Under the pieces are notes generated by a model. It saw only the letters and a program-made list of their open reading frames with translations, had not been told where the DNA came from and made no database searches. From Craspedostauros australis (Eukaryota): DNA of 40,555 nucleotides. The stretch spans positions 124,001 to 164,555 of the forward strand of contig JALAGF010006287.1 in assembly GCA_030167865.1 (NCBI GenBank), in the 5' to 3' direction. Numbering within the stretch: the first letter of the stretch is position 1; the number at the start of each line of letters is the position of its first letter. This document shows, piece by piece, positions 1-18,173 of the stretch. The translations under genes were made by a program, and so were the position numbers.

Positions 1-24
1 GTCGTCGTCGTCGTCGTCGTCGTC
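1..24. repeat. (GTC)8 microsatellite encoding poly-Asp in the pol linker; truncated by the window start
   Basis: gtcgtcgtcgtcgtcgtcgtcgtc read directly; GAC codons in the pol frame. Confidence 0.95.
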
Positions 25-1803
25 CGATTCTGGTTCGGAGTCGGCTTCGTCGTCTGTGACCTGCGGTGTGATTTGGGGCACCCTCGGAGGTGTGCGCGCC
101 GGCGTCGTGGAGGTGACGCGTTTGTTGTTGGTGCGGCTGCTTGCGGTGGTGAGCACCCTCGGAGGTGGCTCGGTGTGCACCCTCGGAAGTGGCGCTGCGG
201 GTGTCTCGGGGAGCGCCTGCTGGAAGATGTCGCTGAGCTGCTGGAGTGCTCCGAGCTGCTCGTCGCCGATCGACTGGAGTGGTGCGCACGGCTTGGTGAG
301 TGCTGTGGCGAGGTCACCTGCTGCTTTGATGGCCATCTCTGCGTTGGTCGGCGTGGGCATGGCGCACTTGCTTGGCATCAGTTCGATGGTGTCGGTGATT
401 CGGACCTTCCTTGTCTTGTTGCAGTACACCTTGTAGCACCGGTAGTGTTCGAGTGCTGGTGCTACGTACCATCCGGCGGATCCGTGTGGTGCCCATGTGG
501 CTCGTTTGCTGGGCTTGTCATGGATGACTGCCTTTGTCCCTGGTGGTGCCATTGGCGTTGCATTGAAGTCGAAGTTGCCGTGGAGGGCATGATGTGCCGA
601 GATGTGCGGGTTGACTCGCGACGGTCGCATCAGGTTGAGTGTGATGTCGCATTGGGGGAGGAGTTGACACCACAGATGGAGTGGAAATGCCTCGTCGGCC
701 GTGGCTAGTCCTGCGATGAAGTGGTCTTTCCAAGTGGAGATGGCTCTCTCTGCTGCGTTGCGTCGGTGAATGCCTGGCGGCACAAGCTGGTATTGGATAC
801 CTTTGGATTCGATGAGGTGCTTGAGTTCTTTCGGCGCCTCGTTGTCGAGTCGGTGAAATCGCGGTGTCATTCCGCTTCGAAGGAGAACCGTCAAAAGTTC
901 GTCACACGCTCGCGTGAGCTCCGTTGCGTGCCGACTGCGCATCGGTCGCGAAAGAATTGCGTTGGAGTCGTGATCGTACAACACCATGATGTACTGGTAT
1001 CCGCGGCTTGACGTCACAGGGAAGCGCCCAGTTTGATCGGTGAAGATTTTACCCGTTGGCCGATAAACGTCCATGAAGATTTCGCGTTGTTCCGTGGGAT
1101 TCTTGGTGGATTGGGTGACGTGGTTACAGTGCTTGCGCGTGGACTGCGTGTTTTGGTACTGTTGTCGGAGGTGCCCAGCGGCGGTAGCGGTGGAAGGTGG
1201 AAGGAATTTTCGCACCAATTGTTCGGTCAGTCCGGGCCACGACGAAAAGAATCCTTTCTTGATGGCTGCTGTGAACGTGGATACCGCGGGGCTGAAGCAG
1301 CACTGGTGGTAATATTTGGCCAGTTCCATCTTGGTTGACGTGTGATGGACGTGATTGGCCATTTTTGGCGATGTGGGCTTCGGCGGTTGGATGTCGATGC
1401 GATACATGCCGTCAACTTGATGCCGACAACCGGTGTGAATCGTGTTTCCGTTTTTTCGAATTCTCACGGATTCTTGGTCGAAGTCAACCGTCATGCCGTG
1501 GTCACACAGTTGCCCCACAGACACAAGCGCCGCGCTGGAAAGTTGTGGAAAAACTCGTGCGGTGCACGCGTGCTGCGGTACATTGGCAATGCTGACCGTG
1601 GCTCGGTGGGAAGATTGGATGTTGGATCCGTCGGGCAACGACACCGACAACGGGTTATCGTCGGGTGTTTGGCCAGTGCAAGGATCTTCAGGTCGCAGGA
1701 AATGACTAGTGCAACCAGAGTCAACTATGGCGAGGGCAGGAGCACAGGATGGTGAAGTAGTAACAGAGAGTGCTACTTGCTTACTGTGGCCCTGCCGTGC
1801 TTG
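1..1803 (-). CDS. pol: Retrotransposon pol, partial (aspartic protease + DDE integrase + linker), 601 codons open to the window edge, in frame with gag
   Basis: No stop codon from 1803 to 1 in the gag frame. Protease Asp at 1722-1720 (DSG); integrase D at 1038-1036, D at 846-844, E at 750-748. Downstream motifs FPLHLWCQLLPQ, GNFDFNATPMAPPG, WAPHG..GWYVAPALEHYRCY. Absent from the ORF track, presumably because it has no stop inside the window. Confidence 0.95.
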
Positions 1804-1806
1804 TCA
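1735..1806 (-). promoter_or_regulatory. Putative gag-pol stop-codon readthrough signal: UGA-CAA followed by a 3' stem-loop
   Basis: Minus strand reads TGA CAAGCAC GGCAGGGCCACAG...CTGTGCTCCTGCC. Arms 1796-1784 and 1747-1735 pair at 12 of 13 positions including one G.U; inner stem AGTAGCA/TGTTACT closes a CTCTC loop. Confidence 0.7.
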
Positions 1807-2967
1807 TGCGTTTGCCGGGGCGCCTTCGGTGGATCCTCCCATCGTGTTGCTGCGAGTGGCCTCCTTCTTGTGCCCTGGCGCTGGGTTCATGCACGTCGCG
1901 CTGGTGTGCGTGATGCCCACCTTGTACCCGTGTGTCCAGCAGTAGGAGTCGTGCTTGTGCTTGCGTCCTCCCTTCTTGCCTCCAGTGCCGCTGCTCGTGG
2001 CCGCATTGGCTTGCAGCTGGGACACCATTGCCGTGATCTCAGACAATTGCTTGACGAGGTTGGCGTTGCTCTCGGTGAGTTGTGCCACGGTGCTGCGATC
2101 CGCGGCTGTGGCGGATGCGAGGTTGGCGAGCGCGTCTGCGGTTTCCGTGGCGGTGATCGCCGCATTGGCTCCTTGGAAGTTGGCGCCCGCAGCCGTGGCT
2201 TGTGATTCGCGGAGGTCTTGGTGGGCTTCAGCGAAGTCCTTCTTGAAGCGAGTCCATGTCTTGTCGGCGGCACTGAGAGCGCGGAAAGAACGGCATGCTT
2301 CGGGGAACGCTTGTGTTCGGAACACCAGGTTGTACGCCGTGGTGACGAGCTGGTGATCTGCGTACGGCGCTTTGGCAGCAGCCGCAAGATCGCGCGCAGA
2401 CTCGATTTGGGCGACGAGCACTTCGAACGGCGCCGTCGGATCGTATGGTGTCTTCATGGCCTTGTCGTTTTCGTCAAGGTCTTGCGGTGTGATCTTGCCG
2501 TACGTGGAGTACAGGTGGGTCAGCAGCTCGAGTGTCGTGACGTTGGCGTAGCCGACGATGTTGTGGCGGAGAGTTCGCACGTACTGGTCTTCAATGGCGC
2601 CAAGAAGCTGTTGCTTGAGGGCATTGTCGACCGCGCGGTACTCTCTCCAAAGGCGCTCCTGTTCCTTGTGGATGCTGGTGGCGGCGCTGATCTGGGCTGC
2701 AGTGGCTGCGTTCGGGATGTTCGGGTGTGGTCCTGGGTTGACCGGCACGACGAATGCTGTCGCCGAATGTTCTTGGTACACCTCTCGGGAGACGGTGAGG
2801 ACCAGGCATCCGAGCTGACCGTTTCCGAGGGGGCAGTGCACCGAGGCCGCATTGGCGTTGAGGACTACATTGAGTTCTGCGATGGACTCGTATGTGGGTA
2901 CCCCGACGATGGGTTCGACGATTGCCTGCGGAAAGGTGGCGAGGATCTTCTCGTGGCTGTTGGCCAT
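1804..2967 (-). CDS. gag: Retrotransposon Gag protein (387 aa)
   Basis: ORF starts 68 nt after the LTR. Motifs LNANAASV..LG.G.LG.L.L, P.NPG..P, LKQQLL.AIE, W..FK..F and a C-terminal YCWTHG...H.S..C.....GH knuckle typical of diatom copia Gag; pol follows directly. Confidence 0.93.
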   Translation of the reverse strand: MANSHEKILATFPQAIVEPIVGVPTYESIAELNVVLNANAASVHCPLGNGQLGCLVLTVSREVYQEHSATAFVVPVNPGPHPNIPNAATAAQISAATSIHKEQERLWREYRAVDNALKQQLLGAIEDQYVRTLRHNIVGYANVTTLELLTHLYSTYGKITPQDLDENDKAMKTPYDPTAPFEVLVAQIESARDLAAAAKAPYADHQLVTTAYNLVFRTQAFPEACRSFRALSAADKTWTRFKKDFAEAHQDLRESQATAAGANFQGANAAITATETADALANLASATAADRSTVAQLTESNANLVKQLSEITAMVSQLQANAATSSGTGGKKGGRKHKHDSYCWTHGYKVGITHTSATCMNPAPGHKKEATRSNTMGGSTEGAPANA

Positions 2968-3021
2968 GGTGATGATTTTTGGTGATGCTGGTCTTGGTGA
3001 CCGAGATTTTCAAACGTTGGC

Positions 3022-3035
3022 TATTAGCGAACAAC
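3022..3035 (-). promoter_or_regulatory. Primer-binding-site position, non-tRNA type (GTTGTTCGCTAATA), complementary to LTR segment 3067-3080
   Basis: Abuts the LTR 3' end (...TTGACA|GTTGTTCG). Lacks the TGG start of a tRNA 3'-end PBS. Plus-strand 3022-3035 tattagcgaacaac is the exact reverse complement of 3067-3080 gttgttcgctaata. Confidence 0.7.
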
Positions 3036-3233
3036 TGTCAATAAGACGAGTAGTGTGTGAATCAATGTTGTTCGCTAATATTATGAGATATTACATTGTT
3101 GAGCTGAGGAGTTGCGGTCTTGGCTCCTGCTAGTGTCTTGATCTGCTCTGGGAGGAAAGTGGGCGCGAGGTGCGCACTTTGCGTACGGTGGTCAGTCGGG
3201 TCACGTGCGGGACTGGAATCAATATCATCGACA
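3036..3233 (-). repeat. 5' LTR (198 bp) of the copia element
   Basis: Minus strand begins TGTCGATGA and ends TTATTGACA: TG...CA ends with an imperfect terminal inverted repeat (7 of 9 match), located just upstream of gag. The second LTR is outside the window, so the boundaries are inferred. Confidence 0.8.
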
Positions 3234-3283
3234 TCATATCCGCAGACAGATAGAAGAAGGCCGCACAAGTACTCAATGCCATC

Positions 3284-4003
3284 ATGGAACATGTTGAGCA
3301 AGAAAGAAGCATCCTCATCATCGGCGCGAGCGGGCGCTTGGGAAGAGCCGTGATCCTGGCAATTTCACATTGCCCCAACAAGCCGCAAATACATGCATTC
3401 TGCCGCGACGTAGGACTTTTCCAATCCGAAGCAGACGTTTCATCGGCATGCACCAGCGTGCTGGGCGGTGACGGGAGGTCATCAACAGACCTGGACAATG
3501 CGCTCCGAGAGTCCGGTGCTAATCTGGTGATCGTCGCCATTGGCAACGGCAAGGACCGATCGAACGCCAACATACGCCATGCCAACGCTGAAGCATTGTC
3601 ACAGGTGCTCATCGCGAACGAGGAGTTTGGCCATGTGCGCGTGTGCGTGATCTCATGTGCCGGTGCCGGGTCAAGCAGCAGCATCCGCATGGGGATGGGA
3701 GTTGGATCAGTTCTGCGCAGGCGGCACCGAGACCTGCTGGAGGATCACACCAGGCAGGAGCGAACCTTCCTGCTGCACATCAAGCACAGGGTAGGCTTCA
3801 TACGCCCCACGATATTCCTCAAAGACCGAACGCCGACTCATCAGCTCCAGACGTTCGACGACGACGGTCACCCGCAGAGCCTGACGACTTTCCGGTCTGA
3901 CCTGGCCGACTGGATCGCAGAGGCGGTCTGCAGCTCAGACGATCCCTTCCTCTTCCAAGGCCGCTCCATCAACATCACGTGCGTCCGTCGAATACGGCTG
4001 TGA
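3284..4003 (+). CDS. NAD(P)-binding Rossmann-fold protein (atypical SDR; flavin reductase/BLVRB-like), 239 aa
   Basis: N-terminal ILIIGASGRLG nucleotide-binding motif, HAFCRD, VISCAGAGSS, DH..QE, IRPT, and C-terminal RSDLADWI pattern. Confidence 0.85.
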   Translation: MEHVEQERSILIIGASGRLGRAVILAISHCPNKPQIHAFCRDVGLFQSEADVSSACTSVLGGDGRSSTDLDNALRESGANLVIVAIGNGKDRSNANIRHANAEALSQVLIANEEFGHVRVCVISCAGAGSSSSIRMGMGVGSVLRRRHRDLLEDHTRQERTFLLHIKHRVGFIRPTIFLKDRTPTHQLQTFDDDGHPQSLTTFRSDLADWIAEAVCSSDDPFLFQGRSINITCVRRIRL

Positions 4004-4366
4004 TCGTGCGCGGACATACATGCATGCAGGCACTACAATCCCGAAGCTCCCAACGGGCCCAAGTCGGATTTGCATCCATGGGTACCCTACTTCGAGCCAT
4101 GCATCCCACACATACCCCTAATCCATCCGTCCATCCGTCAATCTCTCCATTCATTTTCAACCGAGGGGCCCGCATCAGTTCAATCAACGTCTCCCGTAGA
4201 GGTAGATGCACGACGATAATACAACACAAGACACGCCACGACCGCAAGTGATGCAATGGAAGCATTGGTCTCCGCACAAGAATGCAACTCGAACTCAAGA
4301 TTGCGCGAGATCCGTCGCACTAGTTGTCCACTCTCTCTAGAGTATTGTCCTCTGCTCTCTGCTGCT

Positions 4367-4927
4367 CTACGAATGTGCTCCATTTTGTCGCTGCTGTCGA
4401 TTGATCCGTCTCTGTGCACGGTATTCCTCCCAGACACATTGCTCGAAGACCTCCGAACGCCCAGTATCAATCTCTCCAGGTTCCAACGGCACTACCCTTG
4501 TCCTTTGTGGTTGATCGCGGCCGGCACTGTTATTTCCATGCGCTGCTGAGTCTGGCTCATGCAGAGACGAAGATGGAGCATCGTACACCACGTCAAAGCA
4601 TGCGGATGACACACACTGATGAATACAATTCATCGCTTCTTCTGCGATCTGCCCAGAGCACGTCATCCGTTCGCACTCCTGCTGCAGCCTGCGGATGTGC
4701 TCCTCTTTGCCTTTGGGAGGCTTGTTGTGGCCCTTCCCGTACAGATTCCTACGCCGTTGCTCTTTTCGTTGCCCTTGCTGTTTCTTTTGCTGTTGTTGCT
4801 GTTGGTTCTGCTCCGCCACCACGAACTTGGGCAGCAGGAGGAGGATGACCAGCACGAAGAGGTTTTTTACGAAGACAAGCAGATACTTGTTAGTTGAAGG
4901 TGGGCCGTTTCGATTCCCTTTGATCAT
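4367..4927 (-). CDS. Secreted Cys-rich protein, DUF4787-like (186 aa)
   Basis: Hydrophobic signal-like stretch LLVFVKNLFVLVILLLLPKFVVA; Cys pattern C...C......NCIHQCVSSACF...Y, then PLEPGEID..R...F..C, recalled as characteristic of DUF4787. Confidence 0.75.
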   Translation of the reverse strand: MIKGNRNGPPSTNKYLLVFVKNLFVLVILLLLPKFVVAEQNQQQQQQKKQQGQRKEQRRRNLYGKGHNKPPKGKEEHIRRLQQECERMTCSGQIAEEAMNCIHQCVSSACFDVVYDAPSSSLHEPDSAAHGNNSAGRDQPQRTRVVPLEPGEIDTGRSEVFEQCVWEEYRAQRRINRQQRQNGAHS

Positions 4928-5993
4928 GGTGCCAGTCGGGGGATTTACGACACCGTGGGTATCTGACTTGATGGGATCTTGGAGATGATGAGTTGGTGTA
5001 TTTGGATGGCTAAACGACCGAATGACTGCGGCGTTGTTGATGGGCGATGACGCTTGTCGTTTGGATGGTGCGGGCGAGGAGACCTACGAGCTGCACTTGT
5101 GCCAGCGGTGTCGTTTGTAGCAACTTGTGCCTCGTGCCTTGTGCCCAGGCCATGGTCGTCGCTGTCGCTGTTGTTGCTGTTGCTGTTGTTGCTCTTCCCT
5201 TTGCTTCGTTTCGCGTTCCTGCCAGTTCTTGTGTGTGACGACTCTTGGGAGAGAAAGATGACTTGTACCATGCGTCGACCAATGAGATCAGTTCATTTGA
5301 GTGATTTTGAGAACCCAGGACTAATTTCCCAATACAACGTCTGTCCATTGCCCCTATTCATAAGTTTCCACAACCTGGCCAAGACCACAAGTCTGCACTT
5401 TCCAGAACGCTCCATACATATGTACATATGCACATACATATTGTGTAATACAACTTGTCTGGCTGTGCTTCAAGACTGCGACTGCAGGAATCAAGCGACA
5501 GCATAGCTTGTGGATACACTTGAGAGGTTAGGAGTTGATAGGAGTGATATCTCTCTTAATGACAATCATTGTCAACATGACATTGACGGAGACGACGACA
5601 CTGGTGTGGAAATACCAATACATCTGTACGAGCTACAGTAGTATCTTCAGCAGAGTCTATGCAGTGCCTTGCATCAATGGGATGGACAACATATTCCGCC
5701 AGACAACATGTCAGAGTGCGGGTACACTTGAAAGCTGAAGTGGATCGGAATGCTCGACCAATACGCGTAGTTGTTCAGCTCAAAGGATCAAACGCAGCCA
5801 GCGATCGCAGCCTGGTGAATGATGAATGTGCCAAATGGGCACTACTCTCTGGAGTACGAGTATGCTATATTTTATTGTACACAGATGAAAATTGGGATGG
5901 GCAGATGGGGGCAAAAGCACTGGCTGCATTGGGATTGGCATACCCACGATGGTGTGGCGTAGAACGTGGTTCACTCAGAAAGAAGATCCCAAT

Positions 5994-7711
5994 TCATACC
6001 CGACGTTGTCTTTTGGAGGCACGGGTTTTACACAGCTCCTCATCTGAAGTTGGGTGCGTCAGAATGCCGACTGCTCGCATCGGATCAGCGTGCGGGATGC
6101 TCGCCACAGACCCTTCCACACCGATCGCGCTTGCATGCGAAGATTCGCGAGGTTGCGACGAAGTTGATGCTTCAGCCATCGAAATGGAGACCATCGGGAT
6201 CATGGCATTACATCGTCGCTTCTTTGGTGTTGGAGCAGTGAAAGCTTTCACAGCTTCCTTCAGCGTCTTGTCAGACTTGAGCTGATGAAGCACAGACATG
6301 TTGGCCTGCTCGAAGAGCTCGCTCAGGGCTTCGTCTGAGGCTGGGGTGTTGAGAACACGGAGGAAGCAATTGAGGGGTGTTTGCAGAGAGCCAGAAAGAA
6401 GGAAATGCAATGCATGGAGCGGATGAGTATCAGCAGGCTGGTTGGCAGGTTGGTTGATTGATTGAACGAATCGAATCGCACTTGAGGTATCATACTCGTA
6501 TTGGCGCTATCGTACTGAAGCAAAGCCAATGGAAATGAAATGATCATGAAACTCCACAGCCATTCCCAAACATCAGCTTGCCAAATTAGACAGAGATCAT
6601 CATCAAGTATCAGAACTCACCACCTTGCTCAAGACCCTTGTGCACCTCCTCCATGCTACTCGCAACGGCGGCATTCTTCATCATCAGCACATCGATGCTG
6701 TTGTCAAGCTGCTCCGATTCGATTTGGCGTCTCAGTTTCTTCGACTTGGTGCTCGAGCTGTACTTATCACCAAGCAGATCACGAATGCTGCAGGAATGCA
6801 AGGTCAAGCGATGTTTTAGATGTTGGGCGGAACGCACGGTAGCCGAATAAGAGCAACGCGTACCATGTGCACATAGTGGCGCAGCAATGACGTGATTCAA
6901 TGTCACGGAGTCGCGATTGCCGCCCAATCAATTGCAGCGTTGAAGAAAAAGCACAAAATGAAGGTGAAGTTGGGTCAGTTTCAAGTGCATACTGAGACAT
7001 GCTGACCATCTGACAATGCGGGCATGCATGCATGCATGACAATCGCAATCGAGGTTGCATTCACTGTCACCGCGAATATTCGTATTGTCGACGGAACATC
7101 GCTCCAATGGAGACCGACCGAATCATCTGCTCGTCTCCTGGCACCGGTCGAGCATCCCTCAAGATAGATCCTCAACCTCTGCGAATATTCGAACGCTGAA
7201 CGCGACAGTCGCAGACGCCGTCGTTCAATATTGCAACACCGAACCAGTGGGCGACGCAACTTGGCATCGCTTCACCTCCGACGTACCATTGTCCGATCTT
7301 CTCTCGTGCCATGGTGTCATTCACGACAAGCCAACCTGCTCCGTTCTCCAACTTGCGAATGAAACCACCGTTCGGGCTGTTGAAACGGATTTCCTCGATG
7401 ATATTGGTGACGATGCGAGACTTGTCGGCTTTGGATTTGGCGTTCTTGTACTCCGGCACGCAATCTGAGACCAGCTTTCTGAAGTAGACGTTGCCAGGAT
7501 GGTTCTTGACGTTCTTGCCTCTTCCGCAGATGACATCCCGCTCCGTTGGAACGAGGTCATTTGGCAGGATGTCGCTACATTTCGGTCTGGCCATAGCGCC
7601 AAGGGTGAGGTTCGGGAAGCGTGGCGACTGGGCAAGGCTGCTGGCCACGATTCTATCGGCGACGTGCTGGCTTCTGTTGCCATCCGCTTCTTGGTCGATG
7701 CTATTGTTCAT
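5994..7711 (-). CDS. DUF6824-like domain protein, 3 exons (7711-7287, 6787-6621, 6340-5994), about 312 aa; alternative upstream ATG at 7765
   Basis: Motifs DVICGRGK..NHPGN..FR, GGFIRK....W......AREKIGQ|CIRD....YSSSTKSK. GT-AG junctions give an open 939-nt frame. Exon structure is mirrored by the paralogue at 20811. Confidence 0.85.
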
Positions 7712-10255
7712 CTTGTAGGAGCTAGTGGGCAGTGTCAAGACTGGAAGGAAGGATGTCGCAATCATGGCGCGTGGCAGTTATAGAATGCGATGGTATGGAT
7801 GCAGTTGGTGGCGATGACGGTGGCGAGGGCGAGGGCGTCGGCGAGAGTGCTGTAATTGATGCAAGAAGGGATAGTAGAAGTGAAGACGGAAGCGATGGAT
7901 CTTTGCGTCGTTGGAGGTTTCTGGTTGTTGAATTTTGTGAGCTCAATATTGATAGTGGCGGATGTAGTGGTGTGGTTGCCACTGATGACGACGGCGGCGG
8001 TTGTGGCGGCTGTGGCGGCTGTGGCGACGATGATAATGATGATGACGAGGGCAGTGATGATGTGTAGGTCGCATGTCGTTGATGCTCCTCCTCCTCCTGG
8101 TGATGAAGTTACTTTCCGTGCCGTCTCTCTAGTTCAACTCCCCCGAACAGATCGAAAGCAATACCAGCCTTCAAGGGTTTAAACCCTCTTGGAGTAACCA
8201 ATCTCTGAGCGGTATCCTGTTTCTGTCCCTCTCTGGATGTTGCAACCAGAAGCTTGGAGATGGAGACGAAACCAAATTAGCTGGTGAAAATTGTTGGACA
8301 TCTCGCGTTCAAGTTTCAATCCATGCTGTCGCTACATTGCTGTGTATGTTCGTCGCCGCTATTGGTGGTACGAGCACGAGGATGCGTACGACCACGCGTG
8401 CACACGCGAGCAGCTCGAAGATGGCGTTCTCCTCTCCGCTGGTTCCCGAGCGATTTTCGCCAATGTGTCTGTGACCCAGAGGGGAGTAATTTGGCACAAT
8501 GTCAGTCCATCGCTCGTCCTTCGTCGCCCTGTGGAGCACTGCGCAATTCGTGTAGGGAAGAAAAGTACGTGGCCAACCACACCCTGTCTCTTCGTTTCCG
8601 CACGGAGGTGGCGTACTCTCCTTACTAATACATACGTCGTACCATACTCCGTTGCACAACTCTGCTCTGTTCTGTTGGCCCGTGCTCTGGTGCTATTGTC
8701 CATGACGAGAACGTGTGTGTAGCCTGCTCTGGCTGATGATAGGTCGTAATTGTACGTGCTTCACCAGCGAAACGTTTTCAGTTCGTCAACGAAGTTGGGC
8801 CCCAGTGGTTCCGAGAGAACAACTGTGAATCGACTCGATGGACTCAAATGATCTTCATCGTGATGTATGGCGAAAAAACTCGACACCCGGGACACAGCCG
8901 AGGTAGCAATGCACACGCAATCACAGTTGTCGTTCCTGAGAAGGACGACCTCCTGTTTCAGGCTGGTCACAATCATCTTTGGAAAGCTGGTGGAATTGTA
9001 TAGTACCTTCAGTGCCAGTGCTCTCTTGGAGAGGAGCGTGTTCGCACCAAAGCTGGTGTAGTACTAATACTCTGTTGGAGTACATCGGCATCAACACCGG
9101 TGACGCCGAGGATCGTAGTTTATTGCTGCGAATATGTCTATTTGTTCTCCATTCTCATGCCCACGCCGTGCGTTATGAGCGCGGATCAAAAGCTGACGTC
9201 AACAACATCGACATCGGAGATGGCCGCAGTTCTTGTGCCACGGGGTGTGTGAGTCTGGACCAGCGCTGTATCGGAGTTCGTCGCTGGGCAGTCACACATC
9301 CACACCAGCTTTCTACCTGCGAGTAGCTCGTAGCTGCGCGCAGGGATACGGAGACAAGTAATCTCTTGCCAACAGCCTACGAGTAGCCGCGATGGCGAGG
9401 CGATGGCGACTGCAACTATTGAAGCCGCCAAAGTCATGAACTGCCAGAGCGCTCATGCCACGAGTGCTCGCATGCACAGCCAATACGCTGAATCCCTCCA
9501 CCATTCTCGGCTCTGCACGATCTTGACTCAATTGTGTGTTTGCTTGTTTGTGCGCCTGTGTCGAATTCTCCTTTCGTGTTGACGCTTGGCGAAGCGTATC
9601 CCTTTCAGATGACCTCCCTCACAGCGACAAGTTGAGACTTCTCCCCCCATCTCCAAGCTTGGTGCACCTGGCGATTCCCTCCACTTTGGCTCGTAGTTTC
9701 CTCCACTCTATTATATAATAGGTCGTACTGCTGGCATATTGGTACAGGTGTCATGACTCTGCACATCTTTGCGACTTGCTCCGCCACCACGATTATGGTG
9801 CCCAGATGCAGTTGCACAGCCGCAATGGTTTCATGGCTTGACGTTTCCTTGGCTTTTTGCGTTGCATAGTAGTCGTATGTATCGCTCGAGTAGGCTGGTA
9901 GAACTAGCCTATACAGTCTGTCCTCGACCCGTCCCAAACCCATCACCAGTAGCCGCCAATCGAAAATTCTGCGAATCCCATTCTCGCGTTGTTGTTGTTT
10001 TCGATCTTCCATCTTTCTCTCCTGTTTGATTGTTCCGTCCCAACCAACAGACATCACCACCACGGAAGAAAGTGCGGAATAGCAGGGTGACATGATACAT
10101 AGAGAAGAGCGCAGAGCTGACACATCACATGAGCACTGTGCTCGCATGGTACGATAATCGCAGGATTGCAAAAGAGGGCACCCGTCTGCTAGCCAGCCAA
10201 CCAGCAAGTCCATCAATCAAGTATTCAATCAAGCAAGTCTGCACAGGTCCCGACA

Positions 10256-16031: not shown

Positions 16032-18173
16032 ATGCGAAGGCGCAACCAACCCATCATTGACAAGAGGAAGGATTCCCCCCGGCACACGTTCGAAGGCTAC
16101 AATTACGATTGCGAGTATAACTCGCGTGCCGGTGCAGGGAGCAATAGCAGCATGACAAAAAGAAGGATGGAGAAGGATGGTGTCATGATTGATGCTGGTG
16201 GTGACTACAACAACGATAACGATAACGACGACAACAACGACGACAAAAGAGGCATGCATGGCCTTTGGTCGCAAAACAAACATGAGGCCAACGATAGTAG
16301 CCAGAACGATGATGTCTGGCAGCATCAAGTCCAGCGCCATCAGCGTCAGCAGCAACAGAAACGCAAGCGATGTTGGATGGTTTGGGCGGGGCTGTTGGTC
16401 GCAATGTTCTTTGTCGCAGCCGTGTGCCGGAATCCAGAATTATTCACAAAGGCTTCAGAATCGTACGAAGGCGACGAGGGTGGTGGTGAAGGAGTTTGGA
16501 AACACGGCGCGGGTCTGGATGGCGCCGTGAGCGTCAAAGAGAATGACGCTGAAGATCAGGAATCAAAACCACCGCACTCCAAACCAACGTCGTCACCGCC
16601 ACCGCCACTACTGCCGCTGGCCGAAGCAGCGCAAGGTTCCGAACCACGGTTCCGAATGAAATCCGGCAATCACGCTCTGGATGAATTCTACCGATTGGCA
16701 TTGGACGAGGTCGGGCAGAATATTGCAGATGATGGCACCTTCATCGCAGGGGCCGGTTGGACTCAGCTTTGGACGCGTGATACTTCCTATGCCATCGAAT
16801 TGTCCGCTGGGTTGATCCATCCTGAAGTCTCGCAGGCTTCTCTCATCAAGTGCACTGAGCACGTGATGCTCCCAAATCCGACCGACGACGAGAATGCATT
16901 TCCAGATGGGCAAGCAAGATCTCGATGGATCGACGACGGTGAAAACAAGACCGTGTGGTACCAAGACGTTTGCGGGCACTTCGAAGGATGGCCGTTCCTG
17001 ACAGATGCCATTGTCGGTGCCCGGGGTGCTTGGTCGTTGTACCTCAGCACTGGCAATACCACCTTCCTGTCATGGGCGTACCAGGTGACAGTCAACAGTC
17101 TGCAACGAGCGGAAGACGCCAAAGTCCTGACCTGGATGCAGAGCGGCGATTCTCATGCTGAAACCGGCAAGAACCAGCAGCGCGTGGGACAGCCCGCCGG
17201 CCAATCGTCCAGCACACCAGCACTGGAGCTCCGCCATCTAGCCAAGGGGTGCTCGTCCTTCATGGAATCGAATTCTGGATACCCTCGCAAGTATCACAGT
17301 AATGGCACGTTAGTGGGAGAGACCAAGGCGTTGAGCACGAACATGCTGTACTACAACGGCTACTACCTCGCCGGCAAGATGGGGCAGCTGCTGCAAATAC
17401 CCGAAGCAACCAACGCAATGCACTTCGAGAAGGCGAAGCTGCTGCGCGACGCAATCCGATCCAAACTCTGGCTGAAGCAACGAGGGTACTATTCGTACCT
17501 GGAGGATGAGAATGATGAAACGTTGACGCAGATGGAGGGGTTGGGCGAGGCGTTGGTGCTGCTGTCGCCTGAATTCGAGACCTCATCACACAGGATTCGA
17601 GCCATTCTTGATCGAACGTACCGCACGGAACGTGGCCTCCCCTGCCTCTGGCCTCGATTCGATAATTGGAATCACAAGTCAAATGATATTGCGCAGTGGT
17701 ATCACAATGGTCGCATCTGGCCGTTCGTACAGGGGTACTGGGCGATTGCCGCGGCTCGTCATCGCAACGAAGGAGTCTTTGCAGAGGAAGTCCTGTCTCT
17801 GCTGCACCTCGCGCAGGGCAATTCGACATTTGCAGAGTTCTACGAACTCGATGGCACCTTCCCCGCCCGCCGGCGGCGCCAGTTGTGGAGCTCGAGTGGG
17901 TTTCTTGGAATGGTCTATCATGGCATCTTCGGTATGACCTTGCAGCCAGAAGGAATCGAATTCGCCCCCATGAAGCCCACGGAATTGGCGTTGGGCGAAA
18001 CGATCACTCTCCTGAACTTTGCCTATCGCTCGTGCACGTTCGACATCGAGGTCCACGGTGAAGGAACGAACGTCGCGTCCTTCTCCATCAATGGTGAGCC
18101 TCAGGAACGCCCATTCTTTCCATCTGACAGCGATTCGGGGCATCATTCGCTGCGGATCATTCTCTCACCATGA
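16032..18173 (+). CDS. Six-hairpin (alpha/alpha)6 glycoside hydrolase-like protein with an N-terminal transmembrane anchor, 713 aa
   Basis: AGAGW..LWTRD.SY, ALSTN.LYY, YHNGRIWPFVQGYWA, EFY, QLWS..GFL.....IFG motifs typical of debranching/MGH1-like glycosidases. TM segment WMVWAGLLVAMFFVAAV after a basic KRKR patch. Confidence 0.85.
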   Translation: MRRRNQPIIDKRKDSPRHTFEGYNYDCEYNSRAGAGSNSSMTKRRMEKDGVMIDAGGDYNNDNDNDDNNDDKRGMHGLWSQNKHEANDSSQNDDVWQHQVQRHQRQQQQKRKRCWMVWAGLLVAMFFVAAVCRNPELFTKASESYEGDEGGGEGVWKHGAGLDGAVSVKENDAEDQESKPPHSKPTSSPPPPLLPLAEAAQGSEPRFRMKSGNHALDEFYRLALDEVGQNIADDGTFIAGAGWTQLWTRDTSYAIELSAGLIHPEVSQASLIKCTEHVMLPNPTDDENAFPDGQARSRWIDDGENKTVWYQDVCGHFEGWPFLTDAIVGARGAWSLYLSTGNTTFLSWAYQVTVNSLQRAEDAKVLTWMQSGDSHAETGKNQQRVGQPAGQSSSTPALELRHLAKGCSSFMESNSGYPRKYHSNGTLVGETKALSTNMLYYNGYYLAGKMGQLLQIPEATNAMHFEKAKLLRDAIRSKLWLKQRGYYSYLEDENDETLTQMEGLGEALVLLSPEFETSSHRIRAILDRTYRTERGLPCLWPRFDNWNHKSNDIAQWYHNGRIWPFVQGYWAIAAARHRNEGVFAEEVLSLLHLAQGNSTFAEFYELDGTFPARRRRQLWSSSGFLGMVYHGIFGMTLQPEGIEFAPMKPTELALGETITLLNFAYRSCTFDIEVHGEGTNVASFSINGEPQERPFFPSDSDSGHHSLRIILSP

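Follow-up and report, generated by a model that had tools for sequence, protein, structure and literature searches.

A copia-order retrotransposon of a diatom with a predicted self-primer inside its own LTR

Directly behind the LTR of a copia-order retrotransposon of the diatom Craspedostauros australis we found a short sequence which is the perfect complement of a segment within the LTR itself. The element lies on the minus strand of the analyzed stretch of DNA, which comprises 40,555 nucleotides and is here referred to as the window; all positions are those of the window. The two complementary sequences form a hairpin that is placed exactly at the LTR boundary. Throughout a broad clade it is maintained by compensatory changes, and a primer site of the TGG type was not found next to the LTR. 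The explanation that we favour, with a probability of roughly 0.7, is Tf1-like self-priming in cis, where the element would use the cleaved 5' end of its RNA as the primer. For the relatives as a group, the sequences suggest that DNA copying is probably primed from the element's own RNA and not from a host tRNA.

Structurally, the feature represents the 5' part of an LTR retrotransposon which seems to be intact and has the arrangement gag-TGA-pol (Table 1). The start of the window cuts pol, and the reverse transcriptase, the RNase H and the 3' LTR fall beyond it. Within the window the integrase follows directly after a protease with a DSG motif, which is not in agreement with the gypsy order PR-RT-RH-IN. 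Of the copia order PR-IN-RT-RH, protease and integrase are present in the window, and in relatives of up to 58% identity the domain RVT_2 (PF07727) is located 3' of the integrase. Based on the PR-IN arrangement and on the order of domains in the three relatives scanned with Pfam (Pol_BBD, rve, SH3_retrovirus, RVT_2) the element was assigned to the copia order, as already proposed from the window sequence alone. A Pfam search of the gag-like ORF matched no family, and a repeat search within the window revealed no second LTR copy. Judged by its sequence, the junction of gag and pol looks like a case of programmed stop-codon readthrough, which we favour over frameshifting or splicing.

Table 1. 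Positions of the element's features and of the neighbouring gene in the window
Feature	Position	Strand	Remarks
5' LTR	3036..3149	-	stretch matched by an independent copy in run X1
initiator-like motif CTCATAA	3081..3087	-	T at 3083 is the predicted transcription start
arm 1, TATTAGCGAACAAC	3067..3080	-	predicted self-primer, within the LTR
31-nt loop, the last LTR bases, ending in TTATTGACA	3036..3066	-	predicted to be copied into a very short minus-strand strong-stop DNA
arm 2, GTTGTTCGCTAATA	3022..3035	-	predicted primer binding site; its first base is LTR+1
untranslated leader, primer site to gag ATG	2968..3021	-	
gag-like ORF, 387 aa	1807..2967	-	ATG at 2967; Cys/His knuckle near the C-terminus; tblastn match to gag of relatives
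single in-frame TGA between gag and pol	1804..1806	-	
N-terminal part of pol	1..1803	-	protease (IVDSGCTSHF), then integrase; frame open to the first base of the window
NAD(P)-binding host gene (PF13460-like)	3284..4003	+	divergent from the element and not part of it

The earlier note had described a primer site complementary over 14 nt to the element's own LTR, and a repeat search confirmed this inverted repeat: both arms are 14 nt long, 100% complementary and 31 nt apart. Read along the minus strand, the motif CTCATAA is followed by arm 1, by the loop and by arm 2. It also held true that a tRNA-type primer site starting with TGG is missing, as the triplet does not occur from 3035 down to the gag ATG at 2967. 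To estimate the contribution of chance, 720 dinucleotide-preserving shuffles of upstream regions (20 for each of 36 regions) were searched for a perfect arm with a loop of 15-80 nt. The longest arm among them was 11 nt, reached twice, compared to the 14 nt observed for the element. Folding of the RNA between 3083 and 2968 gave the stem of arm 1 and arm 2 at -23.9 kcal/mol (z = -4.29), and none of 200 shuffles folded as well. A scan of 2800-3400 against Rfam gave 0 matches at E <= 1, and a scan for promoters and terminators of the bacterial type found nothing relevant.

The position of the LTR end was determined by comparison with run X1 (Logan contigs), of which the contigs were aligned to positions 1-8000. 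A search for sequencing runs yielded X1 as its single run (share 0.06) and no RNA run. X1 contains DNA or RNA of the same species, since one of its contigs, 814 nt in length, is identical to 4348-5146. Another X1 contig matched 3036-3149 with a single difference. Two more matched only 3036-3065 or 3035-3065 and continued into two sequences differing from each other. As the X1 contigs depart from the window at 3035/3036, the LTR ends at 3036 and arm 2 starts with the next base. This 3' boundary is firm, and the pairing stops precisely there. Over 1-2937 no X1 contig was found, nor did any of them span the junction of LTR and primer site.

The 5' end of the LTR can be placed either at 3149, resulting in an LTR of 114 bp, or further upstream, for example at 3233 with an LTR of 198 bp. 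The shorter form is suggested by the X1 contig, which is unlike the window above 3149. At 3233 an alternative TG start is present (TGTCGATGATA), where 8 of 11 positions match the reverse complement of the LTR end. The mismatch between X1 and the window would be explained either by a 114-bp LTR that starts without TG or by copies with different U3 regions. In any case the LTR is shorter than about 250 bp, because the divergent host gene starts at 3284; in the relatives L072 and L036 it measures about 106-144 bp. We rejected the run of the pol ORF into the LTR as a marker of the 5' boundary, since a frame that stays open for only some 29 codons carries no significance. The X1 copies of the LTR have at least 141 nt upstream of 3149 in common, which are unlike the window.

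A search among longer proteins yielded 657 relatives at E <= 0.001. The best 120 of these 657 were 966-1791 aa in length with a top identity of 58%, and many of them carried PF07727. Scanning metagenome contigs with a PR-IN alignment led to 78 loci, while among viral contigs 37 pattern matches were obtained, of which 0 were confirmed. For the analysis of the hairpin the window was combined with those 35 loci for which the N-terminus of gag was located and the sequence upstream of it extended over 100 nt or more (n = 36). These 35 relatives are 33-58% identical in PR-IN.

A perfect arm of at least 9 nt with a loop of 15-80 nt was present in 34 of the 36 regions upstream of gag, and it reached at least 11 nt in 23 of them. 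The corresponding counts in the 720 shuffles were 43 and 2. In these 34 elements the perfect pairing covers 9-14 nt between an LTR segment and the bases just 3' of the LTR, with loops of 23-55 nt. Some loci deviated. L048 has 11 pairs including one G-U pair; in L040 the automated search picked another 9-nt hairpin, although the standard one of 9 nt is there as well. A real exception was L032, which carries an arm-1-like sequence without a complement and a best arm of 5 nt. Outside the set of 36, L065 showed only about 6 pairs by eye.

Self-comparison of the 78 loci identified true LTR pairs with flanks in three of them. In L034 the LTRs are 214 and 213 bp long, 94% identical and bordered by the target-site duplication AGTAT, in L036 they measure 144 and 137 bp, and those of L058 are identical with 216 bp. 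In all three, where the ends are fixed by the LTR pairs, arm 2 begins at LTR+1 and the complementary LTR segment is located 35-45 nt upstream, after a CATAA-like motif. Furthermore, the 3' LTRs of L016, L007 and L071 hold arm 1 and then run into unrelated flanks, which shows that arm 2 lies outside the LTR. As a control for the strand, hairpins anchored to the motif were counted in 372,823 bases: 49 were on the pol strand, spread over 42 of the 78 loci, and 6 on the opposite strand. Most of the loci without such a hairpin lack the 5' region and others show a 3' LTR only. In none of 33 elements was TGG found at an offset of 0-2 after the LTR.

Upstream of arm 1, in the AT-rich tract which the earlier note had pointed out, the conserved motif TCAT(A/T)A is located. 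In the alignment of upstream regions CAT was invariant, the consensus in most elements was (C)TCAT(A/T)A, and CAT[AT][AC] adjoined arm 1 in 32 of the 36 regions. A part of the work of Kadono et al. proposes TCAH(+1)W as an initiator-like sequence of diatoms (PMC4686930). The consensus fits this proposal, which is suggestive of a transcription start at the T of the motif given in Table 1. Arm 1 starts 2-7 nt past the base following (T)CA, and by the consensus proposed in this one paper the RNA is predicted to begin 2-7 nt before arm 1.

Among the families 25 distinct arm-1 sequences were distinguished. The covariation alignment consisted of 25 sequences after leaving out 8 loci with a duplicate arm 1 as well as L040, L032 and L048. 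In the MAFFT alignment the 5' arm of the window was shifted by one column and the 3' arm of L067 was wrongly aligned, which in both cases works to the disadvantage of the structure. For these 25 non-redundant sequences RNAalifold predicted exactly the stem of arm 1 and arm 2 with 11 pairs. That the two arms might co-vary in related families had been raised before, and the signal was strong, with compensatory double changes at 11 of the 11 pairs. In total 92.1% of the cells were paired compared to 60.6 +/- 2.1% in shuffles, and the covariation score was 0.703 compared to 0.165; in both cases 0 of 500 shuffles reached the observed value. These shuffles leave the relatedness of the sequences in, which is taken care of by a second control: when the partner was slid by 1-3 columns, the pairing fell to 25-44%. 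Complementarity of at least 9 nt, anchored at the primer site, to the LTR of another element was limited to 6 of 600 ordered pairs, all of them from close families.

With these data a chance inverted repeat or a misplaced LTR boundary becomes extremely improbable. Such a reading could draw on the fact that only one LTR of the element is in the window and that it has two candidate 5' boundaries. It is effectively refuted, since the shuffles never exceeded 11 nt against the 14 nt observed, the boundary at 3036 is backed by independent X1 junctions, the same design recurs in 34 of 36 elements and the arms covary.

Alternatively, the hairpin could be an RNA structure conserved for a different function, for instance in packaging, dimerisation or translation control, or in order to mask the primer site. 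The primer could then be an unseen host RNA, for example an internal or 5' fragment of a tRNA. Stems around primer sites occur in retroviruses, namely the U5-leader and U5-IR stems. In addition, TAGCTC is common to many arms and forms their end, a sequence which we take to resemble the start of the D-arm of tRNAs; in those families it is thus formally possible that the arm is related to a tRNA by origin or that a 5' tRNA fragment is involved. The fungal copia element GalEa, in which a hairpin of unknown role replaces the primer site (PMC5445492), would be a further parallel. However, the 3' arm sits exactly at LTR+1, the position of a primer site, and apart from it no candidate primer site was detected. 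A conserved host tRNA is moreover hard to reconcile with 25 different primer sites in one clade, each of them matching its own LTR perfectly and not those of others. We therefore consider another role of the hairpin combined with a host primer to be unlikely. ARAGORN, applied to the window and the 78 loci, called one doubtful tRNA-Arg of 94 nt, and the anchored match to primer sites was at most 6 nt, a comparison that carries no weight for the question of tRNA priming. This call (anticodon tcg, 16562-16655, minus strand) is G-rich and repetitive and looks like a false one.

In the Tf1-like self-priming which we prefer, transcription would start at the TCAT(A/T)A motif within the LTR, so that 3 unpaired bases would precede arm 1 in the RNA. 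Arm 1 would fold back across the loop onto the primer site abutting the LTR end. As in Tf1, a cut in the duplex, presumably made by the RNase H of the element, would release the 3' end of arm 1. The 3'-OH of the cut arm could then prime the minus strand, the first templated base being the last base of the LTR. Since the 3' end of arm 1 faces this base, the minus-strand strong-stop DNA would be a copy of the loop and comprise only about 31 nt (23-55 nt in the relatives). Since the attached primer would be copied during plus-strand synthesis, arm 1 would serve as the new template of the primer site, and we propose that this is why both arms stay perfectly complementary and drift together. The first strand transfer would need the loop sequence at the 3' end of the RNA, so that a poly(A) site is expected at or beyond the LTR end.

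The same complementarity would allow priming by arm 1 of the 3' LTR or by that of a second packaged RNA. Being part of the LTR, arm 1 would lie near both ends of the full-length RNA, provided that the poly(A) site is downstream of arm 1, and the three 3' LTRs described above do hold it. Pairing in cis and in trans is indistinguishable in the covariation data. A primer from the 3' end would, however, require removal of the poly(A) tail to expose a 3'-OH at the end of the arm, and contigs ending in poly(A), which would mark RNA 3' ends, were found at 0 of the 78 loci. The initiator-like motif directly 5' of arm 1 is what a primer from the 5' end predicts, and the 5' end is also used by Tf1, the only tested precedent as far as the part of the literature on which we draw goes. 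Taken together, we judge this alternative to be possible but improbable. Of the two primer sources considered in the earlier note, a cleaved 5' end and the 3' end of the transcript, the motif thus favours the former.

The comparison with Tf1 revealed similarities as well as differences. According to a part of the published account, the Tf1 RNA's initial 11 bases anneal to the primer site and the RNase H cut falls between bases 11 and 12 (PMC7175516). Like Tf1/Tf2 of Schizosaccharomyces pombe and the Tf1/sushi and Tcn1 groups, all of them Ty3/gypsy elements, the element analyzed here has no tRNA-type primer site. As in Tf1, the bases 3' of the LTR are complementary to a short 5'-proximal LTR sequence (11 nt in Tf1 by the same partial account, 9-14 nt here), and the geometry of the hairpin sets the 3' end of the arm beside the last base of the LTR. 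In contrast to Tf1 the element is copia-order (PR-IN-RT) and not gypsy-order, and the loop of only 23-55 nt is counted as a further difference. Another point of departure from Tf1 in layout concerns the arm, which here follows 2-7 nt after the predicted start, whereas that of Tf1 comprises bases 1-11 in the account cited; this offset argues against a Tf1-like mechanism. Moreover, priming has been tested for Tf1 and is predicted here from sequence. We place the element outside the Tf1/sushi clade (Metaviridae), which it would resemble in mechanism only.

Within the copia order, self-priming has been predicted for the plant Ty1/copia lineage TAR (Houba, Osr-1), as stated in a part of PMC6317226. 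Both groups are members of one superfamily, and for both of them the evidence consists of sequence prediction. They differ in lineage and in their hosts, which are land plants for TAR, unlike the diatom and the aquatic metagenomes of our study; the likeness refers to the predicted priming. A second comparison can be made with GalEa, which was grouped together with CoDi-like elements as copia 'Branch 1' by Llorens et al. (PMC2774666). GalEa is likewise a copia element without a tRNA primer site and has a conserved hairpin (Conserved Hairpin Site) at the primer-site position (PMC5445492). Its hairpin, however, begins only downstream of the LTR and forms a palindrome together with the last LTR base, whereas one arm is inside the LTR here; the authors found no complement of the GalEa hairpin in the LTR (PMC5445492). 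Elements primed by half-tRNAs (Drosophila copia, Ty5, Osser, Bianca) are also copia-order and have primer sites that do not start with TGG. Following the relevant portion of PMC6317226, these sites are conserved within a lineage because they pair with an internal segment of a tRNA that is itself conserved, while the primer site described here is specific to the family and tracks its own LTR.

A search of the literature available to us gave no paper in which diatom or CoDi elements are connected with self-priming. Neither 'tRNA' nor 'priming' occurs in the main text of Maumus et al. 2009 (PMC2806351), and its single 'PBS' is a buffer; primer sites are not mentioned in Llorens et al. 2009 (PMC2774666). 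The suggestion that self-priming may be unreported for diatom copia elements is therefore in agreement with our search, but the principle is not new to the copia order, given the prediction for TAR in the cited part of PMC6317226. What is new is the lineage and the host group. From the sequences we would describe the finding as a new lineage with a priming strategy that is already known, here in an unusually compact form. Its value is comparative and not conceptual, as the principle was known before.

In a broader sense, we lean slightly towards a widespread copia-order clade of diatoms and other aquatic protists that replicates without tRNA primers. In its members the promoter start, the self-primer, R/U5 and the primer site would be arranged within about 60-90 nt of the LTR end, the strong-stop DNA of 23-55 nt would possibly be the shortest of any LTR element, and the primer site would be rewritten in every cycle. 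If true, the rewriting from the primer would account for the fast drift of arms that stay perfectly matched. Together with TAR of plants and the gypsy elements Tf1 and Tcn1, self-priming would then be recurrent or even ancestral in LTR elements, as suggested in PMC3601003. The choice of the primer binds an LTR element to its host. Primer sites for tRNAs are targets of the host's defence by tRNA fragments and limit where elements can replicate. A large and diverse copia clade of the diatom type would escape this tie if self-primed, which bears on the spread of these elements and on their known stress-induced activity (PMC2806351).

For practical purposes the order of initiator-like motif, arm, loop of 23-55 nt, LTR end and complement may be used as a rule for annotation, since tools based on tRNAs miss the primer sites of these elements. 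Mutants of arm and counter-arm in a transformable alga would represent a clean test system.

Besides the primer site, some further observations were made. The element is orientated head-to-head with the NAD(P)-binding host gene, for which the nearest Atlas cluster scored 0.98 with Bacillariophyta as the commonest taxon. Depending on its 5' boundary, the edge of the LTR is about 50-135 bp away from the ATG at 3284, and the insertion is thus located in the promoter or 5' region of this gene. At the edge of the window (1-60, minus strand) an acidic stretch, DDEADSEPESDDDDDDDD, closes the region behind the integrase. Exactly one in-frame stop between gag and pol, mostly TGA or TAG, was present in 36 of the 39 relatives evaluated, and 3' of the gag stop there are usually 6 nt followed by GGG. 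The flank of the 3' LTR of L007 contains an inverted repeat of 38 pairs with an 18-nt loop, which is unrelated to the hairpin of the primer site. Finally, the polypurine tract and the start of the LTR are conserved as GAGGGTG followed by TGTT in L009, L012, L017, L020, L032, L061, L072 and others. The consensus C-terminus of pol (..RGCV..) is apparently encoded across this junction, so that the pol ORF of the relatives seems to enter the 3' LTR.
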